From: a virus
Taxonomy: Duplodnaviria > Heunggongvirae > Uroviricota > Caudoviricetes
IMG/VR virus record: IMGVR_UViG_2703718872_000025
DNA: 6,191 nt
Direction: 5' to 3' (one strand)
Part shown: positions 2 through 6,191 of the stretch, one piece after another
Layout: every line of letters begins with the position of its first letter
Position numbering within the stretch: position 1 is the stretch's first letter
Notes under the pieces: model-generated
Told to the model about the DNA's origin: nothing
Database searches by the model: none
Seen by the model: only the letters and a program-made list of their open reading frames with translations
Program-made: the position numbers and the translations under genes

Positions 2-2758
2 GCGGCGAAAACGTCAGAAACGAATGCTTCAGCGTCACAACAATCAGCAGCCACATCTGCATCCACCGCGACCACGAAGGCATCAGAAGCTGCGACCTCG
101 GCCCGGGATGCGGCGGCCTCAAAAGAGGCGGCAAAATCATCAGAAACGAGCGCAGCCTCGAGCGCCAGTAGTGCAGCTTCCTCGGCAACGGCGGCAGGAA
201 ATTCCGCGAAGGCGGCAAAAACGTCCGAGACGAACGCCAGGTCTTCTGAAACGGCAGCGGGACAGAGCGCCTCAGCTGCGGCAGGCTCAAAAACAGCGGC
301 TGCGTCGTCTGCCAGTGCAGCGTCAACAAGTGCCGGGCAGGCCTCAGCCAGTGCCACCGCCGCCGGAAAATCGGCAGAAAGCGCTGCATTGTCCGCTTCA
401 ACAGCCACAACGAAGGCTGGCGAAGCCGCTGAACAGGCCAGCGCAGCAGCGAGGTCTGCATCCGCAGCGAAGACATCCGAAACGAACGCGAAAGCGTCGG
501 AAACCAGCGCAGAATCCTCAAAAACGGCAGCGGCATCGTCTGCCAGTTCGGCGGCGTCATCGGCATCATCTGCGTCTGCTTCAAAAGATGAGGCGACCAG
601 ACAGGCGTCAGCAGCGAAGGGCAGCGCCACGACGGCATCCACGAAGGCGACAGAGGCTGCTGGCAGTGCGACAGCGGCAGCACAGAGCAAAAGTACGGCG
701 GAATCCGCGGCAACGCGCGCCGAGACAGCAGCTAAACGGGCAGAGGATATTGCATCCGCCGTGGCGCTTGAGGATGCAAGTACGACGAAAAAGGGGATAG
801 TACAGCTCAGCAGTGCGACCAACAGTACGTCTGAAACGCTGGCGGCAACGCCAAAGTCAGTAAAATCAGCCTATGACAATGCAGAGAAACGTCTGCAGAA
901 AGACCAGAACGGCGCTGATATACCCGATAAGGGACGCTTCCTGAACAACATTAACGCGGTCAGTAAAACAGACTTTGCTGATAAACGTGGTATGCGTTAT
1001 GTGCGGGTTAACGCTCCTGCAGGTGCAACATCTGGAAAATATTACCCTGTTGTTGTTATGCGTTCTGCTGGCTCAGTAAGCGAACTGGCATCAAGGGTCA
1101 TTATCACCACGGCAACGCGAACCGCAGGCGATCCGATGAATAACTGCGAGTTTAACGGATTTGTTATGCCTGGTGGCTGGACTGACAGGGGGCGTTATGC
1201 TTATGGAATGTTCTGGCAATATCAAAACAATGAACGAGCCATCCACTCAATAATGATGAGTAATAAGGGCGATGATTTGCGCTCTGTGTTCTATGTTGAT
1301 GGCGCTGCTTTCCCTGTTTTTGCGTTTATCGAAGATGGCCTGTCAATATCCGCACCTGGTGCTGATCTCGTTGTTAATGATACGACCTATAAGTTTGGGG
1401 CAACAATTCCAGCGACTGAATGTATCGCGGCGGACGTTATCCTTGATTTTAAGAGTGGGCGTGGTTTTTATGAGTCCCATTCGTTAATCGTTAACGATAA
1501 CTTGTCGTGCAAAAAACTTTTTGCCACAGACGAAATTGTAGCGCGTGGTGGTAATCAGATTCGAATGATAGGTGGGGAGTATGGGGCATTATGGCGTAAT
1601 GATGGCGCTAAAACTTACCTGCTGCTTACCAATCAAGGTGATGTTTATGGTGGCTGGAATACATTAAGACCGTTTGCTATTGATAACGCAACCGGCGAAC
1701 TGGTTATTGGAACCAAACTGTCCGCAAGTCTGAACGGTAACGCATTGACAGCAACAAAGCTGCAAACGCCAAGACTGGTTTCTGGGGTTGAGTTTGATGG
1801 TTCAAAAGATATTACTTTAACCGCCGCGCATGTGGCTGCTTTTGCCAGAAGGGCAACGGATACATATGCCGATGCGGATGGTGGCGTTCCCTGGAATGCC
1901 GAATCAGGCGCTTACAATGTCACCCGCTCTGGCGACAGCTATATTCTGGTTAACTTCTATACCGGAGTCGGAAGTTGCCGGACCCTGCAGATGAAGGCGC
2001 ATTACAGAAATGGAGGTCTGTTCTACCGTTCCTCAAGAGATGGCTATGGTTTTGAGGAAGGCTGGGCAGAAGTTTATACCTCGAAAAATCTTCCACCAGA
2101 AAGCTACCCAGTTGGCGCACCAATTCCGTGGCCATCAGATACCGTTCCGTCTGGTTATGCCCTGATGCAGGGGCAGACTTTTGACAAATCTGCATACCCG
2201 AAACTTGCAGTTGCTTATCCGTCAGGCGTGATCCCTGATATGCGTGGCTGGACGATTAAGGGCAAGCCCGCCAGTGGTCGTGCCGTATTGTCTCAGGAAC
2301 AGGACGGCATTAAATCGCACACCCACAGCGCCAGCGCATCCAGTACGGATTTGGGTACGAAAACCACATCGTCGTTTGATTACGGCACTAAATCTACGAA
2401 TAACACCGGGGCACATACACACAGTGTGAGCGGCTCTACAAACTCGGCTGGAGCACACACACACTCACTAGCCAACGTGAACACGGCTAGTGCTAACTCC
2501 GGTGCTGGTAGTGCATCAACAAGATTGTCTGTTGTGCATAATCAAAACTATGCAACATCATCTGCTGGCGCACATACCCACTCACTGTCCGGCACTGCTG
2601 CAAGCGCAGGTGCACACGCACATACTGTCGGTATTGGTGCTCATACGCACTCGGTTGCGATTGGCTCACATGGACACACCATCACCGTTAACGCTGCTGG
2701 TAACGCGGAAAACACCGTCAAAAACATCGCATTTAACTATATTGTGAGGCTTGCATAA
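2..2758 (+). CDS. stf: Side tail fibre protein Stf, 5-prime partial (true start upstream of window)
   Basis: Frame 2 is open from nt 2 to the TAA at 2756-2758; the ORF-track start at 389 is only an in-frame TTG. Translation shows Ala/Ser/Thr-rich N-terminal repeats (AKTSETNA recurring), a phage-tail-fibre-repeat-like segment ([31 protein letters not shown]) and a C-terminus (GAPIPWPSD...KSHTHS...GAHTHS...[11 protein letters not shown]) that I recognise from memory as the lambda Stf / T4 gp37-type tip. No frameshift interrupts the gene within the window. Confidence 0.92.
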
Positions 2759-3342
2759 TGGCATTCAGAATGAGTGAACAACCACGGACCATAAAAATTT
2801 ATAATCTGCTGGCCGGAACTAATGAATTTATTGGTGAAGGTGACGCATATATTCCGCCTCATACAGGTCTGCCAGCAAACAGTACCGATATTGCACCGCC
2901 AGATATTCCGGCTGGCTTTGTGGCTGTTTTCAACAGTGATGAGGCATCGTGGCATCTCGTTGAAGACCATCGGGGTAAAACCGTCTATGACGTGGCTTCC
3001 GGCGACGCGTTATTTATTTCTGAACTCGGCTCATTACCGGAAAATGTCACCTGGTTATCCCCGGAAGGGGAGTTTCAGAAGTGGAACGGCACAACCTGGG
3101 TGAAAGATGCAGAAGCAGAAAAACTGTTCCGGATCCGGGAGGCGGAAGAAACAAAAAACAGCCTGATGCAGGTAGCCAGTGAGCATATTGCGCCACTTCA
3201 GGATGCTGCAGATCTGGAAATCGCAACGGAGGGAGAAACCTCGTTGCTGGAAGCCTGGAAAAAGTATCGGGTGTTGCTGAACCGTGTTGATACATCAACT
3301 GCACCTGATATTGAGTGGCCTACGAACCCTGTCAGGGAGTAA
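2758..3342 (+). CDS. tfa: Tail fibre assembly protein Tfa (194 aa)
   Basis: ATG at 2758-2760 overlaps the stf stop (TAATG), with GAGG 8 nt upstream; 194 codons ending TAA 3340-3342. Translation [24 protein letters not shown]...[39 protein letters not shown]... closely matches my recollection of lambda Tfa, which is also 194 aa. Confidence 0.92.
3178..3297 (+). repeat. Direct repeat copy A (3-prime end of intact tfa)
   Basis: Aligns without gaps to 4227-4346 with 13 mismatches in 120 nt (~89%), in the same reading frame; similarity stops abruptly on both sides. Confidence 0.85.
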
Positions 3343-3396: not shown

Positions 3397-4053
3397 CTAT
3401 TTTTTCCCTGAAGCGGAAAACATTACTACAGTACCTTGAACCTTGGTTTTAACATTCTCGAAATGCTCTGAGAGTATATGTGTTAAGCCTTCTTCGGAAT
3501 CTTTTGTGTTTGAAAAGATGCCTTTCTGATTGTAAATGCGCATCAGTTTTTGACCGAAGCTATTGTGCACAACTCCATCGCCAAGAATTGTGGCTCCGTA
3601 TAGAGTTCCATCGTCAGTTAAGGCCTGCGCCGCATTGCGTATTACACAGCTTTTTGTAGATATATTTCCAGGCAGGCAGTGAAGAAGGTAAAACATGGAA
3701 ATGGAATCAAATTGACCATGTAACGCCGCGGGATAAGGTTCAAAAACATCATGGCTAATTTTATGTTTAATTTTTGATTCCCCAGCCCTTGTAGATGCCG
3801 CGTTCAGGCTAGCTTCGTTCAAATCCATTAAAGATATCAGACTACTCTCAGGTACGTGAGTAAGGTAAAACCCAGTTCCAACACCAATATCCAGATGGTT
3901 GTTACCTAAATGTTCCAGAAAGTGTGGAAGAAGGTGTTCCTTTGTAGGACATCCCCATGCAAGCCGATTTGATACTCCCAAAACCCACCAGTCATAAAGC
4001 TTTAGGGTAAGTGGTGTGTAAATTTTAGCCCCATCATCTGTGTTTTTTTTCAT
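3397..4053 (-). CDS. ybcY: Class I SAM-dependent methyltransferase (Rossmann-fold, small-molecule/protein type), prophage cargo; ybcY-like by genomic context
   Basis: The - strand ORF runs 4065 to 3397 (stop TAG, complement of 3397-3399). Two in-frame ATGs: 4065-4063 with no Shine-Dalgarno, and 4053-4051 preceded by GGTGA at a 5-nt spacing, so I take 4053 as the start (218 aa; 222 aa if 4065 is used). Motif I LDIGVGTG (codons at 3871-3885), acidic residue after the second strand (LMDLNE), motif II-like FDSISMFYLLHCL. Gene symbol is assigned from the tfa / MTase(-) / tfa-fragment synteny recalled for DLP12, not from sequence identity, so treat it as provisional. Confidence 0.75.
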   Translation of the reverse strand: MKKNTDDGAKIYTPLTLKLYDWWVLGVSNRLAWGCPTKEHLLPHFLEHLGNNHLDIGVGTGFYLTHVPESSLISLMDLNEASLNAASTRAGESKIKHKISHDVFEPYPAALHGQFDSISMFYLLHCLPGNISTKSCVIRNAAQALTDDGTLYGATILGDGVVHNSFGQKLMRIYNQKGIFSNTKDSEEGLTHILSEHFENVKTKVQGTVVMFSASGKK

Positions 4054-4121
4054 TAATTTCACCATGTTATAGTTTTATTTGTGAATTAAATCAATTATGG
4101 CGATGAATTACAAGGGGTTAA

Positions 4122-4427
4122 ATGCTGCCGCAGCATAGCGATATTGAAATAGCCTGGTATGCTTCGATACAGCAGGAGCCGAATAGCTGGAAGACCGTCA
4201 CCACACAGTTCTACATCCAGGAATTCAGTGAGTATATTGCGCCACTGCAGGATGCTGTAGATCTGGAAATCGCAACGGAGGAAGAAAGATCGTTGCTGGA
4301 GGCATGGAATAAATATCGGGTATTGTTGAATCGTGTTGATACATCAGTAGCTCTGGGTATGAAGCTGTTTGTAACTCATGTTACAGTAACAGCCATTACT
4401 ATCTCGAAGGTGCAAAATGTATATTGA
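4122..4427 (+). CDS. Tail fibre assembly protein C-terminal fragment (tfaX-like remnant; probably non-functional)
   Basis: 101-codon ORF with ATG at 4122 and AGGGG 5 nt upstream. Only residues ~36-75 ([40 protein letters not shown]) resemble Tfa; the flanking sequence is unrelated. Contains direct-repeat copy B. Confidence 0.5.
4227..4346 (+). repeat. Direct repeat copy B (inside tfa remnant)
   Basis: Partner of 3178-3297; 107 of 120 nt identical, ungapped, same frame. Confidence 0.85.
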
Positions 4428-4554
4428 TTTGATATTTTATAAATTTACTTCGAATCTGGCACGTCAACTTTTGATTAAAGTAATATCAGTTTTCGGCGAA
4501 AAAAGGACCGTGTACATGAGACGATTTCATACAAGAATAACAAAAATATGAATA

Positions 4555-4590
4555 TGCTCCCAATGCAATATATGTTTTGCATTGGGAGCA
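4555..4590 (-). terminator. Probable Rho-independent terminator of the hydrolase gene
   Basis: Perfect inverted repeat gctcccaatgcaa (4556-4568) / ttgcattgggagc (4577-4589) with an 8-nt loop, extendable by one T-A pair. On the - strand it begins 20 nt after the hydrolase stop codon and is followed by the U-rich stretch auauucauauuuuuguuauuc. Confidence 0.45.
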
Positions 4591-4610
4591 AATAGCGGAA
4601 TATTTTGAAA

Positions 4611-6095
4611 TTATTGTATTTCTGCTTCAGAATTTCCTGGGCAGTATATATTTTCTATTTTTTGTGGAGTGATCAGGTGATGTACAACTGCTTTATCTAC
4701 ACATAAATTAACTCCGGTGAGAGCTAATGTATGCCCATCACCATTTATTGTTAGTAACGGGCTGGAAAATTTCTCTGCCATCTTACGGGCATTAATCCAG
4801 GGCGTTGTTGGGTCGTATTTGTGTGCTACAAACAGTAAACCAGAGGGCAGAACAGTATTTTTCAGGCGAGTTTTGTTCAGGTCGCTATGTATTGGCCATA
4901 ATTCACAAAAATCAGGTGAATCGGAACGTCCATTGTCAAAGTTAATAGCCGGGAAGGCATTCGCAAGAGCGTCTTTTCGGGATTTTCGCTCTTCTGGTGT
5001 TAATTGCTCATCCCCCTGATCTACACAGAGGATTACCCCCGAAGCATCGCTTGACTCTTCTGAGGCTATCGGAGCACTGAGCGCAGTTTCAATTTCATTA
5101 CTGACAATCCCCTGAGAGAACTGGCGTATGGCAGTTGCAAGGGTTGGCCATGATGAACGCCATAGCAGAAGGTCTGTTGTTAATGATATGAGTTCACCTG
5201 AAGATATATTTTCTCCCTTACTGTCTAATAAAGGTTTGTGATGTAATTTTGATAATAGCTCATGGAAGTGAGTTATTGCCTTATCTCTGTCTGAAGAAAG
5301 CGGGCAACTTTTTGTACGCGCACACCAGGATGCAAAGCGATCAAACGTTTCCTGATAACTCTGTGCCTGTTTGAGTTGCCATGTGAAGTTGTCCTCCAGG
5401 TCATCGATATCGACGACTCCATCAAGAACGATAGATCTTACGTTGTAGGGAAAACGTTCTGCATATAAGGCTGCAATTTGAGTTCCATACGAATACGCCA
5501 CGGCTGTCAGTTGTTTATCCCCCAAGGCTTGCCTAATACGATCAATATCGTATACAGCCTCGTTAGAGCCGATATGGCGAATGACTTCGGCTCCGGTATT
5601 ATGGATACAGGCATTAATTTTATTTAATACTTGTTGCTTTTCGGTTATGTTTTCCTGAGTCTCTGTATCTGATTGCCGGCAGTTTATTGTCGGAGTGGAC
5701 TGTCCGACGCCTCGAGGATCAAATCCAATAATATCCCATGACTCACGAAGATTTGTGACTGGCCAGTCAAAGTTAATATAAGGATTTATGCCTGGTAACC
5801 CGGGACCACCACTTATTATCAGGATACTTCCTTTATGCTTGCTTTTTGCCGGCAATTTTGTCAACGCTAGTTTGACTTGTGATTTTTTTTCATAAGAAGC
5901 ATCTCCGCCTGTGTCTGTATATTTTAATGGAACAGACAAATAACCACATAGTAAGTCAGGAGACGGTTTTTCCTCACCAAACCAGTGGTTGAATTGACTG
6001 GCCATACAGGATTGCCACTGTATCTGCTGGGCAGATACGGTTACTGGTAGAAGTAACGTTAAAACAACTTTGAAATGAGTAATTATTTTTCGCAT
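4611..6095 (-). CDS. Secreted/periplasmic alpha/beta-hydrolase, S33 (prolyl/tripeptidyl aminopeptidase, TAP-like) family serine hydrolase
   Basis: 494 codons from ATG (complement of 6093-6095) to TAA (complement of 4611-4613). N-terminus MRKIITHFKVVLTLLLPVTVSA/QQ looks like a Sec signal peptide with no lipobox. Ordered motifs: IISGGPGLPG (oxyanion-hole region), GFDPRGVGQS, AYSYG nucleophile elbow (Ser codon 5490-5492), then KYDPTTP and GDGHT near the C-terminus as candidate Asp and His of the triad. Confidence 0.85.
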   Translation of the reverse strand: MRKIITHFKVVLTLLLPVTVSAQQIQWQSCMASQFNHWFGEEKPSPDLLCGYLSVPLKYTDTGGDASYEKKSQVKLALTKLPAKSKHKGSILIISGGPGLPGINPYINFDWPVTNLRESWDIIGFDPRGVGQSTPTINCRQSDTETQENITEKQQVLNKINACIHNTGAEVIRHIGSNEAVYDIDRIRQALGDKQLTAVAYSYGTQIAALYAERFPYNVRSIVLDGVVDIDDLEDNFTWQLKQAQSYQETFDRFASWCARTKSCPLSSDRDKAITHFHELLSKLHHKPLLDSKGENISSGELISLTTDLLLWRSSWPTLATAIRQFSQGIVSNEIETALSAPIASEESSDASGVILCVDQGDEQLTPEERKSRKDALANAFPAINFDNGRSDSPDFCELWPIHSDLNKTRLKNTVLPSGLLFVAHKYDPTTPWINARKMAEKFSSPLLTINGDGHTLALTGVNLCVDKAVVHHLITPQKIENIYCPGNSEAEIQ

Positions 6096-6191
6096 TGTGT
6101 CTCTGAATATCGGAATAAAGATAAAATTTGAATATATTGAGGTCTTGTGTTGCGGTAAGAGATTACTGGATTTGCCCCTATATTTCCAGAC

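Follow-up and report, generated by a model that had tools for sequence, protein, structure and literature searches.

The 6,191-nt stretch of viral DNA analysed here (hereafter the window; IMG/VR record IMGVR_UViG_2703718872_000025) opens with a reading frame on the + strand (nt 2-2758, frame 2) that is open from the left window edge to a stop codon at nt 2756-2758, and whose two ends, but not its middle, resemble the side tail fibre (Stf) of phage lambda. The question raised by this locus is whether a lambda-type fibre gene had its middle exchanged here, as an initial annotation made from the sequence had proposed, or whether the patchwork reflects something more general about this gene family.

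Gene identity and genomic setting

Read in a genome matching the window at 100%, the full gene begins 605 nt to the left of the window edge and comprises 3363 nt, encoding 1120 aa (Table 1). Its product has the same length as StfR of the K-12 prophage Rac (b1372, NP_415890) and is identical to it at 1107 of 1120 positions (99%) in a gap-free alignment. Similarity at the DNA level was equally uniform, with 97.8% identity to K-12 stfR overall, between 95 and 100% in each 100-nt bin, and 60 evenly spread nucleotide mismatches over the part of the gene that lies in the window, alongside 13 scattered amino-acid substitutions. Uniform similarity to a single known Stf, here K-12 StfR, is the outcome that the initial annotation itself had named as contradicting its proposal: the mosaic pattern against lambda is a property of the whole StfR family and is not locus-specific. 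Because it corresponds to StfR over its full length, the gene does not imply descent from an ancestor specific to lambda. We consider it very probable that nt 2-2758 belong to an intact StfR-type allele encoding the side tail fibre of an ordinary lambdoid prophage. StfR-type genes were already known, and the mosaicism of tail fibres is textbook knowledge and well documented.

The element hosting this gene is a lambdoid prophage at the ompT/envY/nfrA (DLP12) position, with a complete lambdoid tail-gene set and the gene order J-lom-stf-tfa at the right end of the tail operon, as in lambda (annotation of NZ_CP027586). K-12 StfR resides instead in Rac, a cryptic prophage, where tfa likewise lies downstream (TfaR, 180/191 identical, 94%). 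The two loci differ 3' of tfa, where the present prophage carries a ybcY-like methyltransferase gene, a tfa relic, and a hydrolase gene, whereas an invertase gene occupies this place in Rac as well as in phages Turner, mEp460, and 2H10. Upstream of the window, aa 1-134 correspond to the docking domain PF08400 (prophage tail fibre N-terminal; lambda StfN; Pfam E-value 1e-71), which also matches residues 1-94 of lambda Stf in PDB 9e7m (E-value 6e-52). NCBIfam gave no match for Stf, Tfa, or the downstream methyltransferase. The adjacent Tfa is identical to lambda Tfa at 182 of 194 positions (94%), and the previously suggested lambda-like chaperone pairing is supported on this ground.

Table 1 Features of the stf-tfa region, with positions in the window and the evidence on which each assignment is based.
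Feature	Position (nt)	Strand	Evidence
3' part of stfR-type side tail fibre gene	2..2758	+	2757 nt = aa 203-1120 plus stop; 82% of gene; 5' 605 nt outside the window
Ala/Ser/Thr-rich proximal rod, predicted trimeric coiled coil	2..865	+	Composition, repeat spacing, offset of lambda HSPs
Conserved junction region (aa 441-521)	716..958	+	PDB match to Mu tail fibre S (5yvq/8ju3 residues 91-172), BLAST breakpoints, protein alignments
Central module (aa 500-903), absent from lambda	893..2104	+	No lambda match; homologues in other phages
T4 gp34 C-terminal trimerisation-like domain (aa 663-762)	1382..1681	+	Pfam PF21446 Gp34_trimer, E 7e-27
Mu S'-like distal domain (aa 812-907)	1829..2116	+	PDB 8ju3 residues 321-415, domain E 3e-19; profile E 7e-29
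T4 gp37-type receptor-binding tip (aa 902-1120): collar, then needle with seven HxH motifs	2099..2755	+	2XGF, E 2e-88
Hypervariable head cassette (aa 1024-1053)	2465..2554	+	Sole non-conserved stretch in five-way tip alignment; DNA gaps
tfa, tail fibre assembly chaperone	2758..3342	+	Pfam Caudo_TAP, E 1e-43; start codon overlaps stf stop

Modules of the fibre and their reassortment

The natural reference for the patchwork is Ur-lambda Stf (orf-401 + orf-314, 774 aa), which is encoded with a Tfa at the same position after J and lom, and for which both the architecture and the receptor, OmpC, have been described (PMC12617516). Residues 1 to ~496 of the present protein match lambda orf-401 (80% over 352 aa, E-value 2e-106) and aa 904-1120 match residues 70-314 of orf-314 (72%, E-value 2e-108), while no lambda match was obtained for protein or DNA between aa ~496 and 904. 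At the DNA level, lambda matches in the window are confined to nt 1-304 (88%), 609-864 (80%), 2114-2440 (84-87%), and 2579-2758 (81-85%). Lambda-like ends with boundaries at ~900 and ~2100, as initially annotated, were thus recovered (N-terminal match to nt ~864, C-terminal match from ~2105-2114), and so was the notion of an exchanged middle, in the sense that the centre is a different, exchangeable module when compared to lambda Stf. Common to both fibres are the docking domain, the Ala/Ser coiled coil, the junction motif, the gp37-like needle scaffold, and Tfa. Conversely, the Ur-lambda coiled coil is 105 aa shorter, its hinge and distal segment (aa 395-529, 135 aa) are replaced here by an unrelated module of 404 aa, its needle carries two extra inserts (10 and 9 aa), and its head cassette is unrelated to the one found here. 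The length sum closes exactly (774 + 105 + 269 - 28 = 1120 aa). Functional chimeras of lambda Stf have been engineered with fusions at R393 and S528 (PMC11338833), and these two fusion points coincide with natural module breakpoints mapped here.

Within the proximal rod, nt 305-608 have no lambda counterpart, and the offset between the flanking BLAST alignments to lambda amounts to 315 nt, or 15 heptads. Direct repeats within the rod are spaced 21, 84, 126, 231, 252, and 336 nt apart, all multiples of 21 nt, and Tandem Repeats Finder detected no tandem arrays in stf. As residues 102-393 of lambda Stf have been modelled as a coiled coil (PMC12617516), the Ala/Ser rod of the present fibre would by analogy adopt the same fold.

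The rod leads into a junction region that is common to Mu S, lambda Stf, and other lambdoid Stfs, and that contains a conserved motif ([23 protein letters not shown]...[11 protein letters not shown]). Left recombination breakpoints fall inside this junction, at nt 864 relative to lambda and at nt 924 relative to PhiR29_1 and mEp460. The left breakpoint lies at the position of the gix site of Mu S. A vestigial Gin/Cin/Pin crossover site was considered as an explanation for this breakpoint and rejected for the present locus, given the lack of an invertase and of an inverted repeat, and a match of only ~9/12 to the half-site. No invertase indicative of an invertible switching segment was found in the window or in its 15-kb flanks, and stf and the region 3' of it are not connected by any inverted repeats.

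Of 5426 complete E. coli genomes, 1360 (25%) carry the central module at ≥80% coverage. Parts of this module occur in P1, P2-like, and T4-like phages, and its identity reaches 55-72% in Turner, 9g, and JenK1. For 9g, the side tail fibre matches across the whole centre at 65%, and the phage's own record describes it as 'similar to lambdoid Rac prophage'. Besides the gp34-like domain, within and beyond which aa 706-777 match T4 gp34 residues 1036-1106 (PDB 4uxe, 5nxf, 9x3r), the centre includes a Mu S'-like domain. DNA identity to Turner along a sliding window jumps from ~50-70% to 91-98% at nt ~1800, and this distal domain behaves as a separate sub-module. With Mu S/S' (5yvq, 8ju3) and the T4 gp34 C-terminus only individual domains are common, whereas the overall fibres, tips, and virion types differ. 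The tail-fibre-repeat-like motif initially placed in the centre could not be retained there, as the corresponding Pfam match lies instead in the C-terminal part (nt 2399-2440).

The first ~190 aa of the centre had no solved-structure relative in sequence and profile searches of the PDB, and a profile built from seven phage homologues retrieved nothing from the PDB beyond gp34 and Mu S/S'. Conserved residues (NNCxFNGFVxxGGWTDRG...ERAIHS) are found across aa ~522-705 in lambdoid, 9g-like, T5-like Vibrio, and T4-like Aeromonas fibres. An AlphaFold2 model of the 404-aa centre built without an alignment was unusable (pLDDT 36). Homologues of aa 511-710 were mostly E. coli fragments either ~60% or 97-100% identical and yielded a shallow alignment; an AlphaFold2 model of the first part of the centre built from 17 sequences reached a pLDDT of 56 and a pTM of 0.61, and a Foldseek search of this model against the PDB returned nothing below an E-value of 0.05, with TM-scores ≤0.32 typical of generic beta-sandwich noise. 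From its context, this part of the centre would act as shaft.

Comparison to other lambdoid phages revealed how these modules are combined. The region up to aa ~510 and the needle scaffold are common to 2H10, mEp332, ev099, Kati, PhiR34_1, Turner, PhiR29_1, and mEp460. The first five of these encode a StfR-type Stf with the same centre (99-99.5%) and the same ends, yet 2H10 combines this centre with a PhiR29_1-type head cassette. Conversely, Turner has the head cassette found here next to a ~70% identical centre, the first sub-module of which is just 50-70% identical in DNA, and PhiR29_1 and mEp460 have both ends in common with the present gene, but a shorter and unrelated centre. Centre and head cassette thus reassort independently among lambdoid phages, and the exchanges are documented by a single tblastn-level comparison, which gives neither their date nor their direction.

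Receptor-binding tip and nucleotide composition

The C-terminal 219 aa align end to end with the T4 gp37 tip (2XGF), with needles of equal length but for 1 aa, and include the Pfam domains Collar (aa 907-954) and Phage_fiber (aa 1002-1015). In a five-way alignment, the tip is 79% identical to that of lambda, 71% to T4, 87% to PhiR29_1, and 83% to mEp460, and seven invariant HxH pairs, which would bind iron, flank one hypervariable stretch. A conserved C-terminal region of about 215 aa with collar and repeated HxH motifs, a single variable stretch, and a downstream chaperone gene, all described for the T4/lambda receptor-binding protein tip family (Magaziner & Salmond 2022), are present here. 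The family is further characterised by iron coordination through the HxH motifs and by binding to OmpC or LPS, and of these traits the motifs are seen in the present tip. The setting differs from that of T4, in which the chaperone is gp38 and the fibre is the long tail fibre of a myovirus, as opposed to a lambda-type Tfa and a siphovirus side fibre.

The hypervariable stretch, or head cassette, is ~30 aa long and unrelated to those of lambda, T4, PhiR29_1, and mEp460; the stretch without lambda DNA homology is wider than the cassette itself (nt 2441-2578). Its position corresponds to T4 gp37 residues 932-965, which have been proposed as a specificity determinant (PMC9659904) and differ in sequence from the cassette found here. 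We infer that aa 1024-1053 are probably the receptor-specificity determinant of the present fibre. The initial annotation of the C-terminal part as lambda-like from ~2100 onward therefore holds for the scaffold, but not for nt ~2441-2578, and its extension to receptor specificity loses its footing: only the gp37-type needle scaffold is conserved, and a lambda-like specificity is unsupported because the head cassette is unrelated to that of lambda. A literature search identified no reported receptor for StfR.

Nucleotide composition was the other argument initially put forward for a foreign middle. GC content drops from 60.8% (N part) to 47.3% (centre) and recovers to 52.1% (C part), and the 37-43% GC attributed to the centre proved overstated, as just 15% of its 60-nt lines are at or below 43%, with a median of 47%. 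The GC contrast is mostly an effect of amino-acid composition, the N part consisting of 72% Ala+Ser+Thr with a GC2 of 0.77 and a GC3 of 0.53. GC3 values were 0.528, 0.421, and 0.465 for the N part, centre, and C part, respectively, with a significant difference between N part and centre (p-value = 0.007), but not between centre and C part (p-value = 0.31), so that the 3' end does not form the higher-GC bracket that had been described. Since GC3 is 0.62-0.67 in the upstream tail genes and 0.46 in tfa, it is the whole distal part from nt ~900 that is lower in GC3.

Alternative readings and a model of the fibre

A lambda stf in which the middle alone was swapped for a foreign low-GC module, with the tip, OmpC recognition, and lambda-type Tfa pairing all kept, would account for the lambda-matching ends, the 94% identity of Tfa, and the drop in GC3 from 0.53 to 0.42 at nt ~900. 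This reading is improbable when set against the remainder of the comparison, in which the head cassette (aa 1024-1053, nt ~2441-2578) bears no relation to that of lambda, the lambda needle has two additional inserts (10 and 9 aa), the coiled coils differ by 15 heptads, centre and C part are statistically indistinguishable in GC3, and the gene equals StfR from end to end. Even less probable, in our view, is a dual-specificity fibre in which part of the centre (aa ~522-705, nt ~959-1510) serves as a lateral receptor- or glycan-binding domain instead of a passive shaft. If true, StfR-type fibres would touch a receptor at a second place in addition to their gp37-like tip, and the conserved residues of this ~190-aa stretch across lambdoid, 9g-like, Vibrio, and Aeromonas phage fibres, its presence in P1, its lack of a solved relative, and the beta-rich core hinted at by the AlphaFold2 model (pTM 0.61) are all consistent with it. 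However, neither family, fold, nor motif evidence points to binding (no Foldseek hit below E 0.05, TM ≤0.32, pLDDT 56), annotations of T4-like phages list the homologous regions as shaft subunits (gp36/gp34), and conservation across phages of such dissimilar hosts as Vibrio, Aeromonas, and E. coli favours a structural over a specificity role.

More plausible than either of these, although still rather unlikely, is that the gene is a silent relic in a defective prophage, intact by chance or through recent acquisition, and at most a reservoir of fibre modules for superinfecting phages. K-12 StfR indeed sits in a cryptic prophage, and lambda can acquire Rac stfR sequence: experiments put homologous recombination between lambda and Rac stfR/tfaR at about 2e-6 (PMC3945230). 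Moreover, in strain 2012EL-2448, which carries a 100%-identical locus, tail assembly gene T is interrupted by an IS3-family element, and the fibre of that strain may never be mounted on a virion. Several findings speak against this reading: the 1120-codon reading frame is intact with 99% amino-acid conservation, 13 amino-acid changes against 60 nucleotide differences from K-12 (window part) are consistent with purifying selection, near-identical genes occur in the plaque-forming phages 2H10, Kati, mEp332, and PhiR34_1, and the prophage holds a full set of tail genes. The relic reading also bears on activity in one host, not on the identity of the gene.

Under the preferred reading of an intact StfR-type allele, homology suggests a trimeric fibre made of serial modules. 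The N-terminal tail-docking domain would be followed by an Ala/Ser-rich coiled-coil rod of heptad periodicity, which exceeds the lambda rod by 15 heptads, and by the conserved junction motif. Next would come a 404-aa distal shaft, in which a T4 gp34-like trimerisation domain and a Mu S'-like domain follow a domain without solved relative, and finally a T4 gp37-type needle, through whose ~30-aa head the fibre would first, and reversibly, engage a receptor in the outer membrane. Lambda-type side tail fibres are mounted on the virion as four trimers that speed up adsorption, and the present fibre may be assembled likewise. Lambda-type Tfa, encoded on the same transcript, presumably assists the conserved needle scaffold in folding. 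Swappable modules make up fibre genes in general, and the patchwork seen beside lambda would be a standing modular polymorphism of the gene family and not an event particular to this locus, likely arising via homologous recombination at conserved junctions among phages and prophages.

As a routine StfR allele, the gene is of small value as a discovery. It does delineate natural module boundaries. Those behind lambda aa ~393 and behind lambda S528 coincide with fusion points already used for engineering lambda delivery particles, and others enclose the ~30-aa head cassette. Finally, since this cassette reassorts independently of the centre in nature, predictions of host range for lambdoid prophages should use the cassette and not overall Stf similarity.

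Gene identity and neighbourhood

The fibre reading frame is open from the left edge of the window and is the 3′ part of a gene found at full length in strain 2012EL-2448 (NZ_CP027586), whose locus matches the window at 100%. There the gene spans 3363 nt and 1120 amino acids, is annotated stfR, and comes after J and lom where a complete lambdoid tail operon ends (window nt = gene nt − 605; residues are numbered on the full protein). At least 80% of the window was covered in 87 complete E. coli genomes, several of them 100% matches (megablast). StfR of the K-12 Rac prophage (b1372) is identical to the full protein at 1107 of 1120 residues, gap-free, and DNA identity over the window part is 97.8%, with the 60 mismatches evenly distributed (95–100% in each 100-nt bin). 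Such uniform, full-length similarity to one known Stf is the outcome that the initial annotation had named as refuting its mosaic reading.

The 2012EL-2448 prophage adjoins ompT, envY, ybcH, and nfrA, the K-12 DLP12 neighbourhood, and its tail assembly gene T, upstream of the window, is interrupted by an IS3-family transposase (positions 3661–5311 of that locus, L001). Tail assembly has probably been lost in this prophage, and the K-12 copy of stfR lies in the cryptic Rac. At the sequence level, the intact 1120-codon frame with only 13 amino-acid changes from K-12, together with near-identical genes in plaque-forming phages, argues that the StfR gene type is functional.

Features of the window and of the fibre protein
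Feature	Window (nt)	Strand	Residues (aa)	Basis or remark
stf ORF	open from left edge; stop 2756–2758	+	203–1120	frame 2; ORF calling, translation
tfa (tail fibre assembly)	2758–3342	+		194 aa; Pfam Caudo_TAP
class I SAM-dependent methyltransferase	3397–4065	−		YbcY-like by name in PhiR29_1
tfa relic ORF	4122–4427	+		101 aa; residues 31–77 match C-terminal part of Caudo_TAP
alpha/beta hydrolase	4611–6095	−		494 aa; Abhydrolase_1 and TAP-like C-terminal domain
phage_tail_N			1–134	Pfam
lambda Stf, virion structure 9e7m			1–94	PDB sequence match
Mu fibre S			441–521	PDB sequence search
Gp34_trimer			663–762	Pfam
T4 gp34 residues 1036–1106			706–777	PDB sequence search
Mu S′			812–907	PDB sequence search
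T4 gp37 tip 2XGF			902–1120	PDB sequence search, E 2e-88
Collar			907–954	Pfam
Phage_fiber repeat			1002–1015	Pfam

Beyond tfa, the 101-aa ORF looks like the remnant of a second tfa; nt 4215–4346 form an 87% direct repeat of the tfa 3′ end (3166–3297), and RefSeq annotates a tail fibre assembly pseudogene without its N-terminus. We take this relic to be comparable to tfaX of K-12 DLP12, and phage PhiR29_1 has the same arrangement. The methyltransferase and hydrolase genes, encoded on the other strand in the interval from tfa to ompT (41–42% GC, GC3 0.35), are probably prophage cargo (‘moron’) genes; PhiR29_1 carries at least the methyltransferase as well as the relic. The hydrolase N-terminus resembles a signal peptide, and just beyond the stop of the gene a 17-nt inverted repeat (nt 4552–4593, 94% complementary, 8-nt loop) makes a terminator-like hairpin. 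A 258-aa Arg/Pro/Gln-rich ORF (nt 24–800, plus strand, frame 3), which overlaps the Ala/Ser-rich stretch of stf, most likely just reflects biased, stop-poor composition; in lambda, orf206b is annotated over the equivalent region on the opposite strand. The last 25 nt of the window (6167–6191, TGGATTTGCCCCTATATTTCCAGAC) are unlike all 20 best genomes listed, whose matches end at nt 6166. They resemble an IS2/IS3-family terminal inverted repeat; if they are one, an IS would have inserted in the source strain between the hydrolase gene and ompT.

Fibre architecture and base composition

Protein alignment to lambda Stf (orf-401 plus orf-314) placed aa 1–352 on orf-401 (80% identity, E 2e-106), aa 343–499 on lambda 231–394 in a second HSP with extra rod sequence on the StfR-type side, and aa 904–1120 on residues 70–314 of orf-314 (72%, E 2e-108); aa 500–903 had no lambda counterpart. 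DNA matches to lambda covered nt 1–304, 609–864, 2114–2440, and 2579–2758. These protein and DNA matches bear out the initially proposed boundaries near nt 900 and 2100 and the non-lambda-like middle. Fibre lengths balance accordingly, the 774 residues of lambda plus 105 (rod) and 269 (a 404-aa centre replacing 135) minus 28 (shorter tip) giving 1120. The two N-terminal DNA HSPs are offset by 315 nt, exactly 15 heptads, and direct repeats in the Ala/Ser region are spaced by 21, 84, 126, 231, 252, and 336 nt, each a multiple of 21, which fits the coiled-coil model of lambda Stf residues 102–393 (PMC12617516).

Searching the PDB with a profile built from seven phage homologues returned the same set of relatives as the single sequence, with no solved-structure relative for the first ~190 aa of the centre. 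Pieces of the centre fall into many different PHROGs tail-fibre families. Structure prediction for it gave a pLDDT of 36 when run on the sequence alone and, with a shallow alignment, a pLDDT of 56 (pTM 0.61); Foldseek with the latter, low-confidence model gave no meaningful match. The tail-fibre-repeat motif initially placed in the centre corresponds instead to the Pfam repeat of the C-terminal part.

GC content is 60.8% at nt 2–865, 47.3% in the centre (nt 893–2104), and 52.1% at nt 2105–2755. The centre is thus lower in GC, as first noted, but the drop had been overstated: rather than the 37–43% reported, the median 60-nt line has 47%, with only 15% of lines at or below 43%, and the step mostly reflects amino-acid composition, since the N-terminal region is 72% Ala+Ser+Thr, with a GC2 of 0.77 and a GC3 of only 0.53. 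GC3 is 0.62–0.67 in upstream tail genes, 0.528, 0.421, and 0.465 in the N-terminal, central, and C-terminal parts, 0.464 in tfa, and 0.35 in the downstream cargo genes (Fisher tests: N-terminal vs. centre, p = 0.007; centre vs. C-terminal, p = 0.31). The pattern is a gradient, lower everywhere distal to nt ~900, and not a low-GC island between two higher-GC lambda-like ends.

Receptor-binding tip and Tfa

The last 219 residues were aligned with lambda (79% identity), T4 gp37 (71%), PhiR29_1 (87%), and phage mEp460 (83%). All seven HxH pairs in this five-way alignment are invariant, and divergence is essentially confined to a head cassette at aa 1024–1053 (nt 2465–2554), which aligns with gp37 residues 932–965, a stretch proposed to determine specificity (PMC9659904); DNA homology to lambda is absent at nt 2441–2578. 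Unlike the StfR-type tip and T4, the lambda needle contains one insert of 10 aa and another of 9 aa, the latter bringing one HxH. These inserts, SFDYGTKTTG and IGAHQHPVV, flank the head cassette (sites at window nt 2369–2400 and 2620–2650) and are consistent with one extra layer carrying one more HxH. The tip scaffold is lambda/T4-like, but the head cassette, the probable specificity determinant, is not. The lambda Stf receptor is OmpC (PMC12617516, PMC11338833); retention of that specificity, as initially proposed, is unsupported, since the cassette differs though the scaffold is alike. Lambda-like Tfa pairing remains reasonable, Tfa being identical to lambda Tfa at 182 of 194 residues (180 of 191 for TfaR), and presumably acts via the conserved needle scaffold.

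Module exchange and proposed working of the fibre

Lambdoid phages 2H10, Kati, Chlobot, mEp332, ev099, and PhiR34_1 have the centre at 99–99.5% identity; Turner and PhiR30_1 have it at ~70%, and 9g-like siphoviruses at 54–65%, with the database record of phage 9g noting ‘similar to lambdoid Rac prophage’. Portions of this module are shared with P2-like phages, P1, a T5-like Vibrio phage, and T4-like Aeromonas ‘gp36’ proteins. Among 5426 complete E. coli genomes, 1360 contain it at a coverage of at least 80%. In PhiR29_1 and mEp460, the N-terminal region (up to aa ~510) and the needle scaffold are shared, whereas the centre is shorter and unrelated. Breakpoints cluster at nt 864–924, ~1800, 2073–2114, and 2441/2578. 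2H10 combines the same centre with a PhiR29_1-type head cassette, and Turner a divergent centre with the same cassette, so that centre and cassette reassort independently. Separately, in mEp460 (L007) stf the (T/S)LAATPKAVK-ending junction motif is duplicated in tandem (132 nt, 44 aa; between window nt 852 and 853 in the alignment), which shows that the junction itself can expand.

Recombination between lambda and Rac stfR/tfaR occurs at ~2e-6 through 88% and 95% identical flanks, mainly by Red-beta (PMC3945230), and lambda Stf chimeras engineered with fusions at R393 and S528 work (PMC11338833); both fusion points are junctions mapped here. An invertible fibre switch was rejected, as gene context and a repeat search gave neither invertase nor inverted repeats at the locus, unlike Turner, mEp460, and 2H10, where an invertase follows tfa. 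Modular exchange is real, but general to the fibre family, and the initial annotation was largely right in its sequence-level observation and only partly right in its interpretation.

By analogy with the lambda structure, the N-terminal domain would anchor three chains to the tail where gpV meets gpM, and a heptad rod, ~15 heptads longer than that of lambda, would project the fibre. Homology to gp34, gp36, and Mu S′ suggests that the junction motif and centre form a hinge and distal shaft. As in lambda and T4, the gp37-type needle may mediate the first adsorption, fast and reversible, by bringing its hypervariable head to an outer-membrane receptor, after which J would engage its own receptor; Tfa would aid trimer folding. 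The gene itself is the already known StfR, and its modularity is the already known modularity of tail fibres.
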